The notes under the pieces: generated by a model | The model's database searches: none | What the model was told of the DNA's origin: nothing | The model's input: the letters and a program-made list of their open reading frames with translations, nothing else | In this document: positions 4,948-61,068 of the stretch, piece by piece | Layout of the letters: each line of letters begins with the position of its first letter | How positions within the stretch are numbered: the first letter of the stretch is position 1 | Translations under genes and position numbers: made by a program | Source: Candidatus Uhrbacteria bacterium | GTDB taxonomy: Bacteria > Patescibacteriota > Patescibacteriia > UBA9934 > GWF2-40-263 | DNA: 64,000 bases | NCBI GenBank assembly: GCA_013204385.1 | Contig: JABMNY010000003.1 | Coordinates: 14,270-78,269 of the forward strand | Direction: 5' to 3'

Positions 4948-6432
4948 TTACCTCGCCTTTTTTGTTACTTGAAATCCAAGGTATTTTCCAATCATGAGTC
5001 TTGTTTGTGCATCGATTGCTGGGAAGGATCCAAATACGATAAATGTGACGGGAAGCAAAAGCCATTGCAATCCCATTACAAGCCACGTATGTCTGCGCAC
5101 TTGTGAAGGACGTGCTGGAAGCAACGTAAGCGACATCATAGCTGAAACAAAAATTCCAACCATCGCGAACTGCATGAGCTGTTCGAGCGTAAACGGGGCA
5201 GCTTGAATCAAGGCGTTTGTCTCCCCTTTTGCCACCCATAACGGCAACCATCCTAAAACGAACATGATGATGGGCGCGGTCGCCCATGTAAACATTCCTT
5301 CGATGTGATTAAACACATATTGAAACTTCTTTCTTTTTGAAATGAGTGGATCGCGTTTAAATCCATCAATCACATACGGAAGATGCTCCACTCCCCAAGC
5401 CCATCGACGCATTTGAATGTATAGCGCCTTCATCGACTCCCAATACGTCTTCCCTGTTACGGCGTCCATGGAGACAGGCAGGAACATTGGGGTCACACGA
5501 TAATCCCCGTGATAATGAAGGAACGCCTGCATGAATATTCGTGAGTCCTCACTCACGATATCTTTCTGCCAAAACCTGACATCCTTCAACATCTTCCAAG
5601 GCATGGAGTGTGAAGAAAACGTCCAAAGACGTTCAGACCGCGTAAGCTCTCCAAACAACCAAAAGGTTGTTCCAAACGCCCCAATACGGACCGGTGCAGA
5701 AGCAGACCAAATATTGTTTGAGAAAAGCGCGATAGGCTGATAGGAAGAATGTGTAGGGTCCTCCACAGTACAGTAGAGATAAGTGAGATACGAAAAATAC
5801 TGGGGATGTGCAATTGTATCGATATCAAACGCCGACACAACAACATCCTCATCTTGAACCTCAGGAAACTGCGTTGCCAAAATCTTCTCCATGGTATGGC
5901 CCATCCAGCTCAAATTTGATCCCTTCCCAGGAATTTCATCCGGAAGCCCCTTTGGATGCACTGTTGAACCAAAATACTTAAACACCGAACCAAATTCTTG
6001 TTCAGCACGACGAACTATTTTTTGAAAAGCCTCCTGATCCGCTTCTTCTCCCCCTAGCACAACCATCATGCGACTGTTTGAAAATCGATTATCTTTGAGA
6101 GAGCGAAGTGTAGAGCGAATAATCTCATACCCCTCCTTATATGTCGGCAGAAGAATCATGTGCACAATCCGATCAGAACCCTCAATCGATGAAAGTTTTG
6201 ATTGCCAATCTGTTTTATTCGCCTGACGATATCGATTCCACGAGATCACCACAAAAATATTGAAGTACAGCACACGAAACAACCACAACAAATCAAACAC
6301 GATGATAAAAATGATCACCCACAGAGGTTGGAAGAAACTCAGAATAAGCGCAATAGAAAAAGTTCCCCAAACCAAGAGGCCGGGGAACATTTCCCAAAAA
6401 CGCATCGATCCGTAGGTGTAAGGTTCTCGCAT
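4948..6432 (-). CDS. Processive family-2 glycosyltransferase (cellulose/chitin-synthase-like), multi-TM
   Basis: 494 aa; N-terminal TM helices, central GT domain, QxxRW motif (IQMRRWAWG); start ATG overlaps upstream stop by 1 nt (TAATG). Confidence 0.7.
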   Translation of the reverse strand: MREPYTYGSMRFWEMFPGLLVWGTFSIALILSFFQPLWVIIFIIVFDLLWLFRVLYFNIFVVISWNRYRQANKTDWQSKLSSIEGSDRIVHMILLPTYKEGYEIIRSTLRSLKDNRFSNSRMMVVLGGEEADQEAFQKIVRRAEQEFGSVFKYFGSTVHPKGLPDEIPGKGSNLSWMGHTMEKILATQFPEVQDEDVVVSAFDIDTIAHPQYFSYLTYLYCTVEDPTHSSYQPIALFSNNIWSASAPVRIGAFGTTFWLFGELTRSERLWTFSSHSMPWKMLKDVRFWQKDIVSEDSRIFMQAFLHYHGDYRVTPMFLPVSMDAVTGKTYWESMKALYIQMRRWAWGVEHLPYVIDGFKRDPLISKRKKFQYVFNHIEGMFTWATAPIIMFVLGWLPLWVAKGETNALIQAAPFTLEQLMQFAMVGIFVSAMMSLTLLPARPSQVRRHTWLVMGLQWLLLPVTFIVFGSFPAIDAQTRLMIGKYLGFQVTKKAR

Positions 6433-7112
6433 TAACGTTCTGATGAAATATCTTTCTTTAATCGAGTCAAGAAACGAGACGCATGTTCTTGTCCCCCAAG
6501 CCCAAATGCCAACCCACCTGAGAGCGCAAGCATTGCAATAAGTCCGGTAAAGAGAACACGAATGAGCTCAGGGGCAATTTGCAACTGCACGAGTGCTGCC
6601 ATGAATGTAAAGATCAAAATCGCCCACTTAGCAATTCCTGAGAGAAAATCTGCAGAAGAAAGTTTTGCTGCTTCTACAGCTGTTTTTACAACGTTCTGAA
6701 CAAAATTTCCAAGCAAGATTCCTGCAAGGAGAATAATAACTGAAATAATGACATTTGGAACAAAGAGAACAACTTGCTGGAGATAATCAGTCACCTGATC
6801 CCAACCAAGAATATCTGTTGCGGCAATCAGGGCAATAATAATCACAAACCACTTTACGATCCATCCAAGAAGGGCTCCGATATGAAGCCGAAGACCAGCT
6901 CGCTCAAACTGAGAAGTAATGTCCAAACGTTTTGCAAGTTCATCAACTCGCAAAAGAGCAATCACCTTAATTACAACGCTTTGCAAGACATGAGCAACGA
7001 TCGCTCCAATAATGAAGACAATAATCGCTCCTAGTAAGTTCGGAAGATACGCAACGATCGTATCCCAAAGTTGCAACAACGGACCTTGAAAAATATCTTG
7101 TGAGAAATACAT
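6432..7112 (-). CDS. Membrane protein with conserved TM-helix repeats (mechanosensitive-channel-like small membrane protein)
   Basis: 226 aa, repeated hydrophobic helices with A/I/L-rich periodicity. Confidence 0.5.
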   Translation of the reverse strand: MYFSQDIFQGPLLQLWDTIVAYLPNLLGAIIVFIIGAIVAHVLQSVVIKVIALLRVDELAKRLDITSQFERAGLRLHIGALLGWIVKWFVIIIALIAATDILGWDQVTDYLQQVVLFVPNVIISVIILLAGILLGNFVQNVVKTAVEAAKLSSADFLSGIAKWAILIFTFMAALVQLQIAPELIRVLFTGLIAMLALSGGLAFGLGGQEHASRFLTRLKKDISSER

Positions 7113-14316: not shown

Positions 14317-14526
14317 TTATTGTGAAAACTTTTCTTTAATCTCTTCGACTTTGTTCTCAACCTGGGCAAGTTTCTTTTTGAGTTCACTTGCAAGCTCTAA
14401 GCCTCGCTCAAACTTTTTCAAACCCGCATCCAGATCAAGTTGGTCTTCTGAATCAAACCATTTTGTGATCTCTTCGAGTTCTGAAAAGGCTTCTGTAAAA
14501 TTTACCTCTTGTTTTTTTGCGCTCAT
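14317..14526 (-). CDS. xseB: Exodeoxyribonuclease VII small subunit
   Basis: 69 aa coiled-coil MSAKKQEVNFTEAFSELEEITKWFDSEDQLDLDAGLKKFERGLELA. Confidence 0.85.
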   Translation of the reverse strand: MSAKKQEVNFTEAFSELEEITKWFDSEDQLDLDAGLKKFERGLELASELKKKLAQVENKVEEIKEKFSQ

Positions 14527-21339: not shown

Positions 21340-21450
21340 CCCTACAACAACAAGAGTGCCGTCTCCGACACTCCGCTACGCCCCGACCCCTCATTGAGCG
21401 GTCGGTTTTATTTTTCCTTATTTGTCGGCGGCTCAGCCCCCGACCTGGTT
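21340..21450 (+). terminator. Intrinsic terminator (ccgacc-N11-ggtcgg + TTTTATTTTT) followed by conserved 34-nt module TTATTTGTCGGCGGCTCAGCCCCCGACCTGGTTG
   Basis: Module recurs as reverse complement at 35405-35452 downstream of the other high-GC orphan gene. Confidence 0.55.
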
Positions 21451-21464
21451 GGCTAAAACGTGTG

Positions 21465-22610
21465 TCATGGAAGATAGTTTGCGGGCTCGTACACATTTCG
21501 GGCATTCCACAGAATCCACCCACTTGCCCCGGCGTCACGTGCCGCTTGGATCTGTGCCTCGATCAATGTACTTGTGTACACTGCGCCAATGTCAAAATCT
21601 TGAAGCCATGGTCGCCAATGCGATCGCAGCTCCTCTTCGGTTCCCGAATACATTCCAAGCATCAAGTGTGTTCCTGAATCCAATGCCATTTTCACGATCT
21701 CATACGGATACAAAGCTGGATTTCCAAGTCCTTTAAATCCGTCTGGATAATGCGAGGGATACACCATGGGTGAAACCCAATCAGCAAAGGGAAAGACATC
21801 CGCTAAACGCTGACCGATATTATAATCATGATGGGACTCAAACGTCATGCCAAACACATCAAACGAAACAGGAATCCCTTCATCATGCATCGTCCCTCCC
21901 ACGGTTTGAAAAAATCTCTGCATCACTTCCACTTTTGTCTCGCGGTGATCATACACAGGATAGACAGTCGCGTTCACGGCGCCATCTGAAGCAAATCGCA
22001 CATAGTCATACTGAATCTCATCGAATCCCGCTTCGTAAAATCGTCGACCAAGTTCGATAGCGTAGTCTGAGACTTCTTGTGCGGAAGGATCCACCCAAAC
22101 CGATCCGATCGAATCAGTCCAATACCCTCCTCCTAACGAGCGCAGTGCCACACTTGGATGATCCCAAGCAAATGCTCCATCACGCATCACCGCGATGCGT
22201 GCGATCCGATAGATTCCTGCGTCCGCAAGACGCACCAATACTTCCCTAAAATCCTCGACCTCAAGCAGTTGTCCATTATCCATCTTCACATCAATCACTA
22301 CCGCGTTCAGCCCCGTCTCCAACATGTACTCAATCAATTGATCTGCACGTGCATTCGTTGCTGTCACAGCGGTCCAATAGATTCCACGCACTTCTTCTGG
22401 AAGAAGTACGTGCGAAGTAACTTCAACAGGGAATTCTTCTTCTACTCCCTCTTTTTCCTCAACCAGCAGTTCTTCAGGCTCTGTTTGTATCACGAGCTCA
22501 ACTTCTTTCTTTTGTTCCTGATGCATCAACATCCCGATACCCAACACAATCAAAAGCGCAGAAAACAAAAACACAGGGACGAGAAACTCGACCCTGTGTT
22601 TGGTATCCAT
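21465..22610 (-). CDS. Membrane-anchored TIM-barrel glycoside-hydrolase-like (GHL10/DUF4015-like) protein
   Basis: 381 aa; N-terminal TM; weak family recollection only. Confidence 0.45.
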   Translation of the reverse strand: MDTKHRVEFLVPVFLFSALLIVLGIGMLMHQEQKKEVELVIQTEPEELLVEEKEGVEEEFPVEVTSHVLLPEEVRGIYWTAVTATNARADQLIEYMLETGLNAVVIDVKMDNGQLLEVEDFREVLVRLADAGIYRIARIAVMRDGAFAWDHPSVALRSLGGGYWTDSIGSVWVDPSAQEVSDYAIELGRRFYEAGFDEIQYDYVRFASDGAVNATVYPVYDHRETKVEVMQRFFQTVGGTMHDEGIPVSFDVFGMTFESHHDYNIGQRLADVFPFADWVSPMVYPSHYPDGFKGLGNPALYPYEIVKMALDSGTHLMLGMYSGTEEELRSHWRPWLQDFDIGAVYTSTLIEAQIQAARDAGASGWILWNARNVYEPANYLP

Positions 22611-32815: not shown

Positions 32816-34904
32816 TATCTCTTAAAAAACTCATTCCGGTGGTTGGTTTCTTTTTCACGCGTTCTCCTAAATCATCAAACACAATCGTGGGTCCCTCATC
32901 GACCCACTCATCGTTTGAGAACGATCCGTACGAAGGCTTTGACACACTCGCCTTTAATTTAATCTCTTCTAAAAGCTCCCTTGGAAGCTCTTGTAAGAAC
33001 ATCGAAGGCTGACTAAGCATGAGTGTATCGTATCCAGAGGTAATCGGATAGGTATAAAACAAATGCTTTTTGGCTCGTGTTGTGGCGACATAAAAGAGTC
33101 GTCGCTCTTCCTCAAGTCCTCCTTTTTCATCAAGTGCCGCTCCAATTGGGAACTTTCCGTCAACGAGATGCATGATAAAGACCGCAGACCACTCCAATCC
33201 TTTTGACTGATGAATTGTAGAAAGCACCATCTTCTCTTCTTCAAACACGCTCCCATCCTCACGGAGTGCTCCATACTCCCCTGTGAGCGCGACCTCATCT
33301 AGGAATTTCTGCAAACTTGTATATCCTTCCGCAAACAGGGCAAACTGTTCGATATCCTCAAGACGATCCATAAAATCAGGATACTCCGCCTCGATGTAGT
33401 CTCGATAGTCTCCCGTGACAACAGCGCGAATGAGCTCCGAAGGTCGTTCTTCATCCCTCATGAGTACAAGGGTCTTTGCAAGATTATTCCATCCAATCTG
33501 TGCACGCTTTGGAACACGCGGCTGTGAATGCAAAATTTCATCAAGAGTCGTGAATTGTTTGAACACGGATGCCATTTTTTCCGCAGTCACAAGTCCGACA
33601 CCTGGAATCAATGAGAGAACGCGCATCCACGCCATCTCGTCTTTTGGATTCATTTTCACCCGCAAATGCGCAACCAGATCTTTCACATGCGCGCGCTCAA
33701 AGAACTTGAGTCCCCCGCGATACTCATACGGAATATCTCTACGCATCAATTCAAACTCCAACTGCTGAGAATGAAATGCTGCACGAAACAACACGGCTGT
33801 TTCTGAAAGCGGAACCCCCTCGTCCCGCAGGGCTAAAATGCGCTGTGCAATAAACTGTGCTTCTTGTGCCGCATTCTGTGCTGGCACAATGTTTGGTTTC
33901 TCAAAAGACGCCAGAACGGCCCCAAGTTCTTTTTTAAACTGTTCTCGATTTTGAAGAATCGTATTGTTTGCGACCGCCAAAATCTCAGGGGTGGAACGAT
34001 AGTTCGTAACAAGTCGAAATGTTTTTGTATTGTTGTAGGTTTGCGGAAACCCAAGAATATTCTTGATCTCTGCCGCACGAAAAGAATAAATCGACTGTGC
34101 ATCGTCTCCGACCACTAATACATTTCCATGTACACTCGCAAGCTGTCGAATAATATCCGCTTGAATGACATTCGTATCCTGATACTCATCCACCAAGATA
34201 TACTCAAACTGCTGTCCGAGTCTTTGACGCACCCCCTCGTTTGTAAACAACAGCTCTCGCAACTTCAAAAGCAGATCATCAAAATCCATCGAATCTGACT
34301 CACGCTTGCGAGACGCATACAGTTCCGCAATACGCTCAATCGTCGAACTCATCTCAATAAAACTTGGATAGCGCGTCTCAAGCACATCGATCATCGGTTG
34401 CCCAGAGTTTTTCGCGTAACTAATAATTCCATTGAGCTTAGCTGGCGATGGAAATCGTCGTGAAGTGGTATCGATCTTAAGCGCCTTGATACAGACCTTC
34501 ACTAGTGCCTTTGCGTCTTCCTGATCGAGAATTGTGAAGTTCGATGTGTGCCCAATCTCAGGAGCGTAAATCCGAAGCAGTCTGTTCGCAATCGAATGGA
34601 ACGTTCCACCCCACAATCCTTTGGGTTTACGACCAAGCAAACTCTCCACGCGCTCCATCATTTCTTTTGCCGCCTTGTTCGTAAACGTCACAAGCAAAAT
34701 ACTCTCTGGACTCACCCCTCGCTCAAGCAAATACGCCACACGATAGGTAATGGTCCGAGTCTTTCCGGACCCTGCCCCTGCCAACACGAGAGCTGGCCCA
34801 TCCCCATGCAAAACCACCTCTAATTGCTCCGCATTCAATTCCTTTTGATAATCAATGTTTGCCTTCGATAGGTCAAAATCATCATGTAACACGAATTCTT
34901 TCAT
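32802..34904 (-). CDS. uvrD: ATP-dependent DNA helicase UvrD/PcrA
   Basis: Walker A GAGSGKTRTITYRVAYLL, helicase motifs; ORF-track start is a TTG; chose ATG (MKEFVLH). Confidence 0.9.
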   Translation of the reverse strand: MKEFVLHDDFDLSKANIDYQKELNAEQLEVVLHGDGPALVLAGAGSGKTRTITYRVAYLLERGVSPESILLVTFTNKAAKEMMERVESLLGRKPKGLWGGTFHSIANRLLRIYAPEIGHTSNFTILDQEDAKALVKVCIKALKIDTTSRRFPSPAKLNGIISYAKNSGQPMIDVLETRYPSFIEMSSTIERIAELYASRKRESDSMDFDDLLLKLRELLFTNEGVRQRLGQQFEYILVDEYQDTNVIQADIIRQLASVHGNVLVVGDDAQSIYSFRAAEIKNILGFPQTYNNTKTFRLVTNYRSTPEILAVANNTILQNREQFKKELGAVLASFEKPNIVPAQNAAQEAQFIAQRILALRDEGVPLSETAVLFRAAFHSQQLEFELMRRDIPYEYRGGLKFFERAHVKDLVAHLRVKMNPKDEMAWMRVLSLIPGVGLVTAEKMASVFKQFTTLDEILHSQPRVPKRAQIGWNNLAKTLVLMRDEERPSELIRAVVTGDYRDYIEAEYPDFMDRLEDIEQFALFAEGYTSLQKFLDEVALTGEYGALREDGSVFEEEKMVLSTIHQSKGLEWSAVFIMHLVDGKFPIGAALDEKGGLEEERRLFYVATTRAKKHLFYTYPITSGYDTLMLSQPSMFLQELPRELLEEIKLKASVSKPSYGSFSNDEWVDEGPTIVFDDLGERVKKKPTTGMSFLRDIDEL

Positions 34905-34912
34905 ACCCAGCA

Positions 34913-34985
34913 AGACAACTTTTTAGATAACAATCCGAATGCCCATTTGCAAGATATCTTTCTTTAAATAAAGAAAAAGTTGTCT
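34913..34985. promoter_or_regulatory. 12-bp perfect inverted repeat (agacaacttttt / aaaaagttgtct) separated by 49 nt, ending 9 nt upstream of uvrD start
   Basis: seen directly in divergent uvrD / small-peptide intergenic region. Confidence 0.4.
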
Positions 34986-35030
34986 TACTGAGCATAGCCG
35001 TGCCATTTTAGCATACAACCCTGTTTGGAT

Positions 35031-35059
35031 TGACAAAATCAAGATTTTCAGGTATAAAA
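35031..35059 (+). promoter_or_regulatory. Consensus-like promoter TTGACA-N17-TATAAA for small peptide gene
   Basis: ttgacaaaatcaagattttcaggtataaa; GGAG RBS upstream of ATG 35113. Confidence 0.5.
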
Positions 35060-35112
35060 TCGTCTCGATTCTGGAAAATCCTCACCCCCCCAGTAAATCG
35101 AGTGGAGACCTC

Positions 35113-35253
35113 ATGAACGGATGGACCGCAGCAACAGTGATCACTCTCACGATCGTGGTCGGAATGGTCGCATGGTTGACCAACGAACCCTGGGTCGCAT
35201 TGGCATTCCTCCTGCCCGCAGGAATTGCCTGGCAAGCAGTCTTTAGTCGCTGA
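35113..35253 (+). CDS. 46-aa hydrophobic (two-helix) membrane peptide, below ORF-track threshold
   Basis: MNGWTAATVITLTIVVGMVAWLTNEPWVALAFLLPAGIAWQAVFSR; own promoter, RBS and terminator; ~56% GC. Confidence 0.45.
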   Translation: MNGWTAATVITLTIVVGMVAWLTNEPWVALAFLLPAGIAWQAVFSR

Positions 35254-35255
35254 CC

Positions 35256-35336
35256 TGACTGCACACTCCCAGCGACCAACGGCAACCTGCCCACCTTAGC
35301 TTTTCGAGCAACGGTGGGTTTTTTCTTTTTCAAAAA
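35256..35336 (+). terminator. Tandem hairpins + U-tract terminator module (ACCTGCCCACC..AGCT.TTCGAGC.ACGGTGGGTTTT) plus duplicated dcd-leader-like segment ending in ATG
   Basis: ~70 nt similar to 61650-61746. Confidence 0.55.
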
Positions 35337-35398
35337 ATTCCTGGCTACCATAAATATGGACTCAATAAAGTTGTAATTTCGACTAACGACTTATCAAG

Positions 35399-35500
35399 AA
35401 AACTCAACCAGGTCGGGGGCTGAGCCGCCGACAAATTAGGGAAAATAAAAACCCTTCGCCAGAGCGAGGGGTGTGCGTTTAGTCCTGTATAGAGTCGGAT
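35399..35500 (-). terminator. Terminator (cccttcgcc-agag-cgaggg + U-tract) and conserved 34-nt module downstream of 441-aa gene
   Basis: reverse complement of module at 21404-21450. Confidence 0.5.
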
Positions 35501-35516
35501 GTGGTGACCTTGTTGG

Positions 35517-36842
35517 TCACAGTGGAGCGCAGGCGAGTTTGAGCTCGGTCTGCATGGTCTTGAGATCAGGTCCCCCGTCGATGAGTTTCCTCATGAGTGC
35601 CTCGACGGCGAGGTGAATGCGCGGAAGGACACGTGGAAGGACGGGACGTTTGAACCCGTGTTCGAGCTTTCTCGCCGTACGTGGATCAACATGCGCAAGA
35701 CGGCGATGGATCGCGAGAAGTTCTTCTTTGTACATCAGTTGCTCGGATGCCCCGATGTCTTGTTTGCGATCTTCCAGAATTCCCACTTGGAGCAGGACCT
35801 CTTCAAGACGTCGGTGACAATCCATCTGAATCATCGCGCGATAGACGCGTCCGATGACATCCTTGGACTGGTCCACATATTGACCATCACTCGCAGTCGC
35901 AGCCTGACGCAGAAGTTGTGCCGCTTCATCGAGATCGTCCGCACAGCGATTGAACGAACGCGAGAACGGTCGGGAGACGATTGCTCGCAAGCGCTGTGCT
36001 TCGAACTCTATTTGACCAGCTTCCTTTCGAACAGAATTGGGAGTCCGTTTCAGAGGAACCAACCACTCCCCACGCAGACGATGCTCTTGACTTCGAGACA
36101 CATCACGCGAGATCTCGTGCAAGCGATCGATGTAGTGCTCAAGCACCACCTCGCGGAAACTCATCCGACGACCGATACCACGTACTGCTTGGATGCGCGA
36201 GGCAACCTTGTTCTCACCCGCAAAGCAGATGAGTGGAATCCGTCCTGGATTGAAACGACCGATTGAGTCGATCACAGAACCAGCTTGGAGCGTTCGCTGT
36301 TGAGCCATGACTTTCGTCTCGTCGATTGGCTTCCCGTATGCCTTGGCAGCACGCACCGCGATGAGCACGAACGACGATTGTCCTTCCTCATCGACCTTGC
36401 GCAATTCCCACGAGTATTTCATCAGCTCATCGAGTGTCCCCGCGAGCTTCTTGTTCGCCGGAATCTCGCGTGAGCGATATCGTCGATCAATCTTCCCAAG
36501 ACCACGACGCGCCTTGAAGACCCCATCGAATGACTGAAAGCACTGATCGACCTGGCTCTCGATAGGTCCGCCACTGAGACGTTCACTGACTTTCATATTT
36601 CGACTCAGGATACTTCCCGGCCGAAGTTCTCGAACATCTTTCGCCAACTCGTGACAGTCCATTGGGACTTCGTACAAGCAATGCGGAATAAGTTCGATGA
36701 GCTTGGCACCCGTAAGCACCAACGGCTCAATCTTGGGTTCGCCCTTTTTGCGACGACGACGATTCCGCAGAACCGTCAGGTCCCGGACGATGATTCTTGG
36801 CTCTTGTGGATCTGGCCACACGAACGAAAAAGGAACGGTCAC
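35517..36842 (-). CDS. 441-aa Arg-rich orphan protein, GTG start, no recognisable catalytic motif
   Basis: Longest ORF in a ~58% GC segment; AGGAGG-N5-GTG; own TTGACA-N17/18-TAATTT promoter and structured ~75-nt 5' UTR. Confidence 0.6.
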   Translation of the reverse strand: MTVPFSFVWPDPQEPRIIVRDLTVLRNRRRRKKGEPKIEPLVLTGAKLIELIPHCLYEVPMDCHELAKDVRELRPGSILSRNMKVSERLSGGPIESQVDQCFQSFDGVFKARRGLGKIDRRYRSREIPANKKLAGTLDELMKYSWELRKVDEEGQSSFVLIAVRAAKAYGKPIDETKVMAQQRTLQAGSVIDSIGRFNPGRIPLICFAGENKVASRIQAVRGIGRRMSFREVVLEHYIDRLHEISRDVSRSQEHRLRGEWLVPLKRTPNSVRKEAGQIEFEAQRLRAIVSRPFSRSFNRCADDLDEAAQLLRQAATASDGQYVDQSKDVIGRVYRAMIQMDCHRRLEEVLLQVGILEDRKQDIGASEQLMYKEELLAIHRRLAHVDPRTARKLEHGFKRPVLPRVLPRIHLAVEALMRKLIDGGPDLKTMQTELKLACAPL

Positions 36843-58834: not shown

Positions 58835-59338
58835 ATGCCTCCTCGTCGCATTCTTGAAATTGGACCAGGACCCAGTCCTCTCCATCATCGAGGAATAGAA
58901 AACTCCCTGCAACTAAAGGACAATGAAGAGTATCACGGCATTGACTCACACGAAGGAATGTCTGAAAGAACCGTCTGGAAGCAAGCAAAGGAAGAATATG
59001 GAGATCGTGTGTTTCTGTATCAAGGGGATCGCACTGACCTCCATCAAATTGCAAACAACAGCATGGACGAACTTGTCGCTCTAGGAACCTATGGTCGAAA
59101 CGGAAAAGCCGTTCGCGAGTTTGATCGTGTTCTTAAAGAAGGTGGAAAACTTCTGTTGGGAACCAACACATCAAATGAACAGGCACTTCGTGAATCTTGG
59201 GGAGCCCGTCTTGAGCGACGTGGGTATCAAGAACTTCCCTCCAAAACAAAGCGATATACCCATAAAGGAAATACTTCTGCTGAATCTCCTTTTATCGTCC
59301 TGGTTTGGCAAAAAGGCTATTCTGAGGAATCGCATTGA
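58835..59338 (+). CDS. Small class I SAM-dependent methyltransferase inserted between nusG and rplK
   Basis: motif I ILEIGPGPSP. Confidence 0.55.
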   Translation: MPPRRILEIGPGPSPLHHRGIENSLQLKDNEEYHGIDSHEGMSERTVWKQAKEEYGDRVFLYQGDRTDLHQIANNSMDELVALGTYGRNGKAVREFDRVLKEGGKLLLGTNTSNEQALRESWGARLERRGYQELPSKTKRYTHKGNTSAESPFIVLVWQKGYSEESH

Positions 59339-59419
59339 CAAAAAACCCATTTCCATCAATAATCACCCCGTTAATCCTTAGCTGTGGTTGCCTGTAAAAT
59401 AGGAATCCACTTAAAAAGT

Positions 59420-60758: not shown

Positions 60759-61068
60759 ATGAACGACGACCACCAAACATCCCACCAAACCATCCTCTTC
60801 CTGTTTCTGTTTTTGTTTCAACCTGAGACTCTTTTAACATATCCTCTAATGGAATTTCTTTGATCAGTTGAGCTATCTCTGCACCAGAGGGTGGATTTGC
60901 GTGATCAAGACGTGCTTGTATTTCTTCAAGCGCTTGAACAAGTGCAGGAACATTTTGAAGCTGATACTTGGAACCTTGCATCAAACGATGATGATCAATA
61001 ATTGCTGTCGTTCTTTGAAGTTGCGCCTTCAACTCAAAAAGAACATCTTCTATCTCATTTCTTTTCAT
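60757..61068 (-). CDS. Hypothetical 103-aa coiled-coil protein
   Basis: ORF only. Confidence 0.4.
   Translation of the reverse strand: MKRNEIEDVLFELKAQLQRTTAIIDHHRLMQGSKYQLQNVPALVQALEEIQARLDHANPPSGAEIAQLIKEIPLEDMLKESQVETKTETGRGWFGGMFGGRRS

Follow-up and report, generated by a model that had tools for sequence, protein, structure and literature searches.

A probable lineage-restricted gene for a 46-residue helical-hairpin membrane peptide beside uvrD in a Candidatus Uhrbacteria genome

A probable small gene in the spacer next to uvrD

A 64,000-nucleotide stretch of a metagenome-assembled genome (MAG) of Candidatus Uhrbacteria, a member of the Candidate Phyla Radiation (CPR), was analysed here at its full length and is referred to as the window (contig JABMNY010000003.1, positions 14,270 to 78,269). 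Adjoining uvrD on the + strand, an open reading frame (ORF) of 46 codons runs from an ATG at 35113 to a TGA at 35253. This frame, termed ORF46, is located in the 603 nt that separate two − strand genes, uvrD/pcrA and a gene for a 441-aa protein. The evidence collected below leads us to regard 35113-35253 as probably a genuine lineage-restricted (ORFan) gene for a 46-residue helical-hairpin membrane peptide. A preliminary description of this DNA, made from the letters alone, had given a 46-aa translation of the frame that was reproduced exactly from the sequence and the ORF listing, and had called the frame unannotated, which is incorrect: GenBank and NCBI nr list the identical protein, from an 80-kb contig, under the title 'hypothetical protein HQ487_00340 [Candidatus Uhrbacteria bacterium]'. 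On the whole that description was largely correct and the gene it pointed to is probably real; it erred in the detail 'unannotated' and in the place that it gave to an inverted repeat, and its suggestion of a toxin is not supported.

Intrinsic coding evidence

A codon model trained on 55 long ORFs of the window gave ORF46 a log-likelihood of +0.27 bits/codon, the best of the six frames, where 46-codon windows of true genes average +0.30 and off-frame windows −0.55. The overlapping ORFs scored lower, with −0.30 for a 75-aa and −0.08 for an 89-aa ORF on the − strand and −0.14 for a 41-aa ORF in another + strand frame. When spurious stop-free ORFs of 35-70 aa inside genes were collected (n = 301), a single one reached the codon score of ORF46 and four its mean Kyte-Doolittle hydropathy of 1.10, and none reached both. 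The base composition was also strongly codon-periodic, G-rich in position 1 and with only 4 A among the 46 second positions and 4 T among the 46 third positions.

The hydropathy pattern was as distinctive as the codon usage. Two separate 17-residue windows with a mean hydropathy of at least 1.91 were found in 5 of 3,792 ORFs (0.13%), ORF46 included, the comparison set being all ORFs of 40-60 aa in 1.24 Mb of the window plus related loci. When the bases of ORF46 itself were shuffled, 19% of the shuffles stayed open, so that an open frame of 46 codons is unremarkable; none of the open shuffles (n = 7,794) attained its two-transmembrane (TM) score or its mean hydropathy. AlphaFold2, run on the single sequence, predicted a helical hairpin of helices 6-24 and 26-44 with a mean predicted local distance difference test (pLDDT) of 91.6, which bears out the two-helix peptide of the preliminary description at the level of prediction. 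E25 and R46 are the only charged residues and the net charge is 0.

Neither of the antisense ORFs (75 aa and 89 aa) had a Pfam match, and no ORF overlapping ORF46 had a counterpart in any related locus. It is thus reasonable to take them, as was done earlier for the 75-aa ORF, for probable antisense artefacts. Hydropathy pattern, codon usage and signals are jointly far beyond chance; the + strand ORF46 is the best coding candidate of the region, and its reading as a peptide is clearly the best on intrinsic evidence.

Expression signals

The promoter TTGACA-N17-TATAAA, as first described, holds good and matches the sigma-70 consensus TTGACA-N17-TATAAT in 11 of 12 positions. Across both strands of the 64-kb window only two such matches with a 17-nt spacing occur, against 0.39 expected, and the other one (59335-59363) likewise lies just 5′ of a gene. 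A ribosome-binding site (RBS) with the Shine-Dalgarno (SD) sequence GGAG is present 5 nt ahead of the ATG; by itself it is weak evidence, as 13% of random 17-nt windows contain an SD-like tetramer and only 20% of naively called gene starts are preceded by one. The terminator claimed earlier, two hairpins and a U-tract, was recovered as hairpins at 35246-35276 and 35289-35319 followed by T6CT5 at 35319-35330. The 91-nt 3′ stretch with both hairpins folds at −25.6 kcal/mol (z −2.6). In our scan for hairpin-plus-T-run terminators, such structures stood 3′ of many genes of the window, and the one behind ORF46 was comparable to those after real genes. There is no long + strand gene for the terminator at 35319 (+) to serve. 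The features of the region are as follows.

35005-35013, − strand: extended −10 box of uvrD, TGCTAAAAT, conserved directly 5′ of uvrD in all related loci
35030-35058, + strand: sigma-70-type promoter; −35 box TTGACA at 35030-35035, 17-nt spacer, −10 box TATAAA at 35053-35058
35035-35048, + strand: palindrome of 14 nt in the promoter spacer, AAAATCAAGATTTT, seen in the sequence
35064-35112, + strand: putative 5′ untranslated region (UTR) of ~48 nt from a predicted transcription start, with a modest hairpin at 35065-35102 and the SD GGAG at 35104-35107
35113-35253, + strand: coding sequence (CDS) of the 46-aa peptide MNGWTAATVITLTIVVGMVAWLTNEPWVALAFLLPAGIAWQAVFSR, from the ORF; HQ487_00340; predicted helices 6-24 and 26-44
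35120-35261, + strand: lineage-specific interior, from codon 3 to just past the stop codon, with no homology to the 76-aa gene of relatives
35246-35276, + strand: first 3′ hairpin, overlapping the stop codon; 7-bp stem (arms 35246-35252 and 35270-35276), 17-nt loop
35289-35330, + strand: intrinsic terminator; stem 35289-35295/35313-35319, inner 4-bp stem, then T6CT5
35262-35473, + strand: 3′ block of the spacer homologous to relatives; terminator of the small gene and terminator region of the convergent 441-aa gene
34903-34995, − strand (context, outside the small gene): hairpin-forming 92-nt insert in the uvrD leader, absent from relatives
35517-36842, − strand (context): convergent 441-aa gene, HQ487_00345, an Uhrbacteria-specific hypothetical gene without a Pfam domain

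The 5′ UTR with the start region (−14.3 kcal/mol, z −0.09) was no more structured than shuffles and the SD was not sequestered; the whole ORF46 mRNA also stayed within the shuffle range (z −1.4). No Rfam family reached its gathering threshold in the window, and between 34000 and 36500 the Rfam matches were at chance level (E >= 0.6), near the uvrD leader and none of them on ORF46. No tRNA or tmRNA was found by a scan for these. The palindrome in the promoter spacer looks operator-like, yet it was not conserved in relatives; near it, AAAATC recurs at 35056 and 35075.

From these signals, a monocistronic RNA of about 260 nt (~35065 to ~35325) would be made from the near-consensus promoter and would end at the intrinsic terminator, and translation would start at GGAG-N5-ATG with the SD accessible. 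Inserted into the cytoplasmic membrane, the product would form two antiparallel helices with a short polar turn, TNEP, between them; the turn would lie on one face of the membrane and both termini on the other. The transcription start, translation, membrane insertion and topology are all predictions from sequence.

The uvrD spacer in related genomes

In the related loci L002, L167, L168, L169 and L170 a gene for a hydrophilic 76-aa protein was found at the same position and in the same orientation as ORF46. The shared arrangement is a small gene pointing away from uvrD and towards the 441-aa gene, the latter followed by yceG, with uvrD, the 441-aa gene and yceG all transcribed in the opposite direction; in L002 the 441-aa gene is missing. 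The coordinates of the 76-aa gene are as follows.

L002, 3673-3903, − strand
L167, 3001-3231
L168, 965-1195
L169, 860-1090
L170, 318-548

The proteins (P0058-P0060; HY626_03110 and HY733_00975) are acidic, share 70-84% mutual identity and have no Pfam match, and AlphaFold2 predicted three soluble helices (pLDDT 73).

A nhmmer profile built from the spacers carrying the 76-aa gene in relatives aligned to the window in two collinear blocks, 35005-35119 and 35262-35473. The 3′ block was detected with an E value of 2.6e-5 over the whole window and 2.4e-7 within the spacer, and its local alignment scored 21 against 9.1 ± 1.3 in shuffles. The 5′ block gave an E value of 0.009 within the spacer and was matched by none of 200 shuffles; its invariant motifs are ATTTTAnCA (the uvrD −10 box), GGATTGAC (the −35 box), CCAGTA, GGAGA and CATGAACG. 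The terminator is homologous to that of the 76-aa gene in L002 and L167, with a compensatory change in the stem (CCCACC/GGTGGG versus CCCGCC/GGCGGG). The −10 box of ORF46 is nearer to the consensus than that of the relatives.

The flanks were aligned by nhmmer and the coding body was not. Global alignments of the ORF46 interior with those of L167 and L002 showed no similarity (z −0.4 and −0.5, respectively), and tblastn of the coding body in the relatives returned noise only. That ORF46 is a frameshifted copy of the 76-aa gene was considered and not adopted, the only resemblance being a marginal 40-nt match (28/40 identical, p about 0.04) without global similarity. Judged from these alignments, the unit in the window is the positional counterpart of the 76-aa unit, with the −35 box, SD, first two codons and terminator kept and a different body. 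Its signals would then stem from an older small-gene unit, the body between ~35120 and ~35261 having been replaced or having diverged beyond recognition.

Synonymous sites of uvrD were saturated between the window and the lineages with the 76-aa gene (synonymous divergence, pS, 0.75-0.84). That the −35 box, SD, start codon and terminator have survived such divergence therefore suggests selection for expression of the unit in the lineage of the window, and the retention of these motifs mildly favours a functional product. Being inherited, the signals are therefore not independent evidence for selection on ORF46 itself. The 'full expression signals' of the preliminary description are all present; they are less independent than they seem, as they come from an older unit that codes for a different protein in relatives.

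Within the 76-aa gene pS was 0.15-0.20, far below the 0.55 of the adjacent uvrD in the L167-L002 pair, and the ratio of non-synonymous to synonymous substitution (dN/dS) ranged from 0.34 to 1.2. The low pS suggests either constraint at the nucleotide level or recent exchange of the unit between lineages.

Other contents of the interval were also encountered. In L084 it holds two unrelated antisense genes of 146 aa and 142 aa, with two N-terminal TM helices in the latter (5330-6517); kinship of ORF46 with these genes was rejected, as no similarity was found. The slot gene of L001/L087, coding for 148 aa (L001 68-514), is rich in GC at third codon positions. Spacers of 220-330 nt were seen in L005 (3678-4010) and L075 (3779-4010), that of L075 being rich in repeats of the TACAGAT type. 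The interval 5′ of uvrD is thus a hot spot of change in gene content, and the inserted genes are all without a family match.

A wider reading, which we offer tentatively and consider somewhat unlikely, is that a conserved Uhrbacteria expression slot lies beside the uvrD promoter, that its coding body turns over between lineages, and that in the window a new two-helix microprotein has arisen or been captured within the signals of the unrelated 76-aa protein.

Homology searches and weighing of the explanations

Apart from itself, the ORF46 peptide matched nothing among 5.8 billion proteins in a word-indexed search or among 1.84 billion cluster representatives that were searched exhaustively with phmmer. 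An exact-protein look-up of contigs gave no record for it. No significant match to ORF46 was obtained in Pfam, NCBIfam, PADLOC or PHROGs (best E 0.1), and the same four libraries gave nothing significant for the antisense ORFs, the 441-aa neighbour or the slot genes of relatives. By Foldseek, the predicted structure of ORF46 had no match in the PDB. There was no sign of a phage origin, since viral contigs scanned with degenerate codons and phage records searched by tblastn yielded nothing for ORF46. Metagenomes scanned with the UvrD N-terminus yielded L087 alone, which belongs to the organism of L001; strains of the window genome were not among the matches. Neither a source of the ORF46 interior nor a second copy was found in the window or in 174 loci.

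Several of these results weigh against a genuine gene. Beyond the two protein searches, none of the related loci contains the coding body of ORF46. In L001, the nearest relative and one organism with L087 (UvrD 91-96% identical), nothing of ORF46 was seen; a co-directional gene of 148 aa stands there instead. In at least 10 lineages the spacer between the 441-aa gene and uvrD is just 45-120 nt long and consists of a terminator, the TGnTAAAAT box and uvrD. ORF46 is known as one sequence from one uncultivated MAG, and its inherited signals would be expected equally on a decaying remnant. Its functional class, accessory and not toxic, is one that we infer only. The preliminary description had named absence of the region from close relatives, together with conservation of the opposite-strand ORF, as the pattern that would speak against the gene; none of the relatives found has the coding region, yet the opposite-strand ORF is unconserved too.

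A decaying remnant is the foremost alternative: the body of an ancestral 76-aa unit would have been lost or scrambled, and ORF46 would be an accidental frame behind the inherited ATG, perhaps transcribed and translated, with no selected function. The inherited −35 box, SD, ATG-AAC and terminator are as it would predict, as are the lack of a homologue among the proteins searched, a slot that is empty or otherwise filled in most relatives, and the 19% of composition-matched shuffles that open from the ATG; the marginal 40-nt similarity to the 76-aa CDS, with its 1-nt frameshift, also points that way. Chance frames do not, however, reproduce the two-TM pattern and mean hydropathy (0 of 7,794 open shuffles), and ORF46 has a gene-like codon score and clear 3-periodicity. 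Its interior, without overall homology to the 76-aa gene (z −0.4), is no simple frameshifted copy, and the −10 box is closer to the consensus than in relatives. We judge the remnant unlikely.

Alternatively, the ~260-nt + strand RNA, or its transcription, may matter in itself, for instance by insulating or tuning the uvrD promoter or by blocking read-through from the 441-aa gene into uvrD. A conserved promoter and terminator around an unconserved body, a promoter back to back with that of uvrD, and the low pS of the 76-aa gene beside its dN/dS values are all in keeping with such a role. It would leave the coding statistics of ORF46 unexplained, and the SD and ATG-AAC, which are relevant to translation only, are conserved as well; the RNA is not unusually structured and belongs to no Rfam family, and most relatives are without any such unit. 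A non-coding role is thus very unlikely.

A membrane-peptide gene remains the preferred reading of 35113-35253. By their form, the promoter and SD seem suited to expression without repression. Since that expression appears to be strong and no antitoxin partner can be seen, an accessory or modulatory peptide is more likely than a toxin; it may be a harmless accessory, or may modulate the membrane or one of its proteins.

The neighbouring genes and the spacer

By alignment with relatives, the true start of uvrD is the ATG at 34904 (MKEF...). The promoters of uvrD and the small gene stand back to back, about 17 nt apart and without overlap. An inverted repeat with 22-nt arms (34903-34924 and 34974-34995; 86% complementary, 13-bp perfect core) overlaps the uvrD start codon at 34904. 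ORF46 had been described as divergent from uvrD across this repeat, which is not its position: it sits inside the uvrD mRNA leader, 3′ of the uvrD −10 box. An operator shared by uvrD and ORF46 was accordingly rejected, the repeat not lying between the promoters.

In relatives uvrD looks leaderless, the TGnTAAAAT box being followed by 9 nt and the ATG. The window differs in that an insert of 92 nt, with inverted ends of 22 nt, parts the ancestral ATG (34995) from the uvrD ATG. The insert forms a hairpin (−35.4 kcal/mol, z −4.7), occurs as one copy only in the window and is absent from relatives. The ancestral ATG opens an upstream ORF of 37 codons (34882-34995, − strand); this ORF runs across the uvrD start in another frame, and uvrD has no SD ahead of it. 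The upstream ORF and the insert may serve in translational coupling or attenuation of uvrD.

The 441-aa protein had 56 homologues, all from Uhrbacteria or other Patescibacteria except for one partial sequence labelled Diapherotrites. The protein and its homologues lack a Pfam domain, and the protein itself also lacks an NCBIfam, PADLOC or PHROG match. Its gene stands almost always between yceG and uvrD in Uhrbacteria, the conserved order being yceG, 441-aa gene, uvrD and malic enzyme. Its GC content was 7-11 points above that of its neighbours in the three lineages checked, and in all lineages examined the 441-aa gene and every slot gene were 7-12 GC points above their own genomes. The GC jump (56% versus 46%) was therefore rejected as evidence of recent horizontal transfer.

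An exact 22-nt repeat, GGTCGGGGGCTGAGCCGCCGAC, was present at 35411-35432 (+) and 21424-21445 (−), where the expected chance count is 0. One copy lies 3′ of the 441-aa gene and the other 3′ of the gene at 21465-22610; both are embedded in about 45-65 nt of similar sequence with a hairpin and an A/T-rich run, and the repeat looks like a repeated terminator-like module. The conserved 3′ hairpin of ORF46 was also considered as an integron cassette end (attC) or a miniature inverted-repeat transposable element (MITE); it is a canonical short terminator with a U-tract, and repeated copies were not found. No integrase gene was called beside the slot in the loci examined, in which no search aimed at integrases was made. 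A 12-nt inverted pair (35238-35249/35380-35391) is at chance frequency and has no counterpart in L002.

Two further short ORFs of the window had gene-like codon scores: one of 36 aa at 60891-61001 (+) with 0.43 and one of 69 aa at 14317-14526 (−) with 0.39 bits/codon. Both are outside the set of genes called as long ORFs, the 69-aa ORF overlapping a member of that set by a few bases, and they may be further small genes.

Significance of the locus

Should ORF46 be real, a CPR genome gains a further small membrane protein confined to one lineage; singletons of this sort are frequent and by themselves no surprise. The main value of the locus is as an example of turnover of a coding body inside conserved expression signals. 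Homology breaks off almost exactly at the limits of the coding body, and the promoter, SD, start and terminator are common to ORF46 and a different gene of relatives, which makes the locus a tractable case for how ORFans gain expression signals, and if turnover of the slot is true it would be a clean natural example of a bacterial ORFan acquiring ready-made ones. The locus also advises caution, in that complete expression signals around a small ORF are no independent proof of selection on that ORF. For annotation practice, tests of hydropathy and codon periodicity separate a plausible microprotein from antisense artefacts in the absence of homologues.

Comparison with known systems

The preliminary description had likened ORF46 to the type I toxin TisB. 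Membrane-associated type I toxins are hydrophobic peptides of <60 aa with one TM helix, a cationic C-terminus and an RNA antitoxin; their mRNAs sequester the RBS by structure and their genes are often tandemly repeated (PMC8309996, PMC2887945). ORF46 resembles TisB, Hok, Fst, Ldr, Ibs, ShoB, ZorO and SprG1 in being short, hydrophobic, helical and encoded by a separate short intergenic unit that length thresholds may miss (PMC8309996, PMC2887945). At 46 aa and a mean hydropathy of 1.10 it fits the toxins in size and hydrophobicity, and in these two respects only, so that the suggestion is not supported.

A toxin of this kind would depolarise the membrane; an antisense RNA would restrain its mRNA, and DNA damage would perhaps induce it, as in TisB/IstR-1. 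The very hydrophobic, lineage-restricted product and the intergenic site beside the gene of a DNA-repair helicase would suit it. Against this, ORF46 has two TM helices, a net charge of 0 and a single C-terminal Arg, where one helix and a cationic C-terminus are the norm (PMC8309996). No sigma-70-like − strand promoter was found within 35100-35516 and no − strand terminator opposite ORF46 in consensus scans; an antisense RNA with another type of promoter, or one encoded in trans, would have escaped these scans. The neighbouring transcripts are kept apart by their own promoter or terminators, and those of uvrD and the 441-aa gene would overlap ORF46 by read-through only, if at all. With 5′ UTR and mRNA no more structured than shuffles (z −0.09 and −1.4) the SD is free, unlike in the toxin mRNAs. 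There is no tandem or second copy, no toxin family was recognised in Pfam, NCBIfam or PADLOC, and the best match there or in PHROGs stayed at an E value of 0.1. The promoter is near consensus; its spacer palindrome is unconserved, no operator-like palindrome is common to the ORF46 unit and its relatives, and relatives have a soluble acidic protein in place of ORF46. Of all the explanations considered, we give the toxin the least credence.

ORF46 fits the class of small bacterial membrane proteins: it is an independent ORF of at most 50 codons that has start signals of its own and is predicted to form TM helices. Small inner-membrane proteins of up to 50 aa, such as AcrZ, MgtS, KdpF and CydX, modulate larger membrane proteins. 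They are mostly single-pass, conserved across genera and often encoded beside their partner. ORF46 is like them in size, in its hydrophobic helical character, in its stand-alone gene with its own signals and in the lack of an enzymatic domain. It differs in its two-helix hairpin, in its restriction to one MAG and in having no adjacent membrane-protein gene, its neighbours being uvrD and the gene of the soluble 441-aa protein. Pmp3/YqaE (UPF0057) are widely conserved proteolipids of about 55 aa and, like ORF46, membrane proteins of very small size that form a hairpin of two TM helices; ORF46 differs in being a singleton without a Pfam match at E <= 0.1.

With the 76-aa family of Uhrbacteria, ORF46 shares the slot, the orientation, the −35 box, the SD, ATG-AAC and the terminator, but not the body: 76 acidic residues in three soluble helices stand against 46 residues in two TM helices, with no similarity between them. 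Bacterial ORFans and de novo small genes (PMC12315717) are comparable in being short, confined to a single lineage and endowed with TM helices, with non-homologous sequence or none in relatives. They differ from ORF46 in that the latter uses a pre-existing promoter, SD, start and terminator and not new signals in bare non-coding DNA. Its body may have originated by replacement, by extreme divergence or de novo. ORF46 is best placed among the small membrane proteins of bacteria and the bacterial ORFans (PMC12315717), of which it is a new singleton member.

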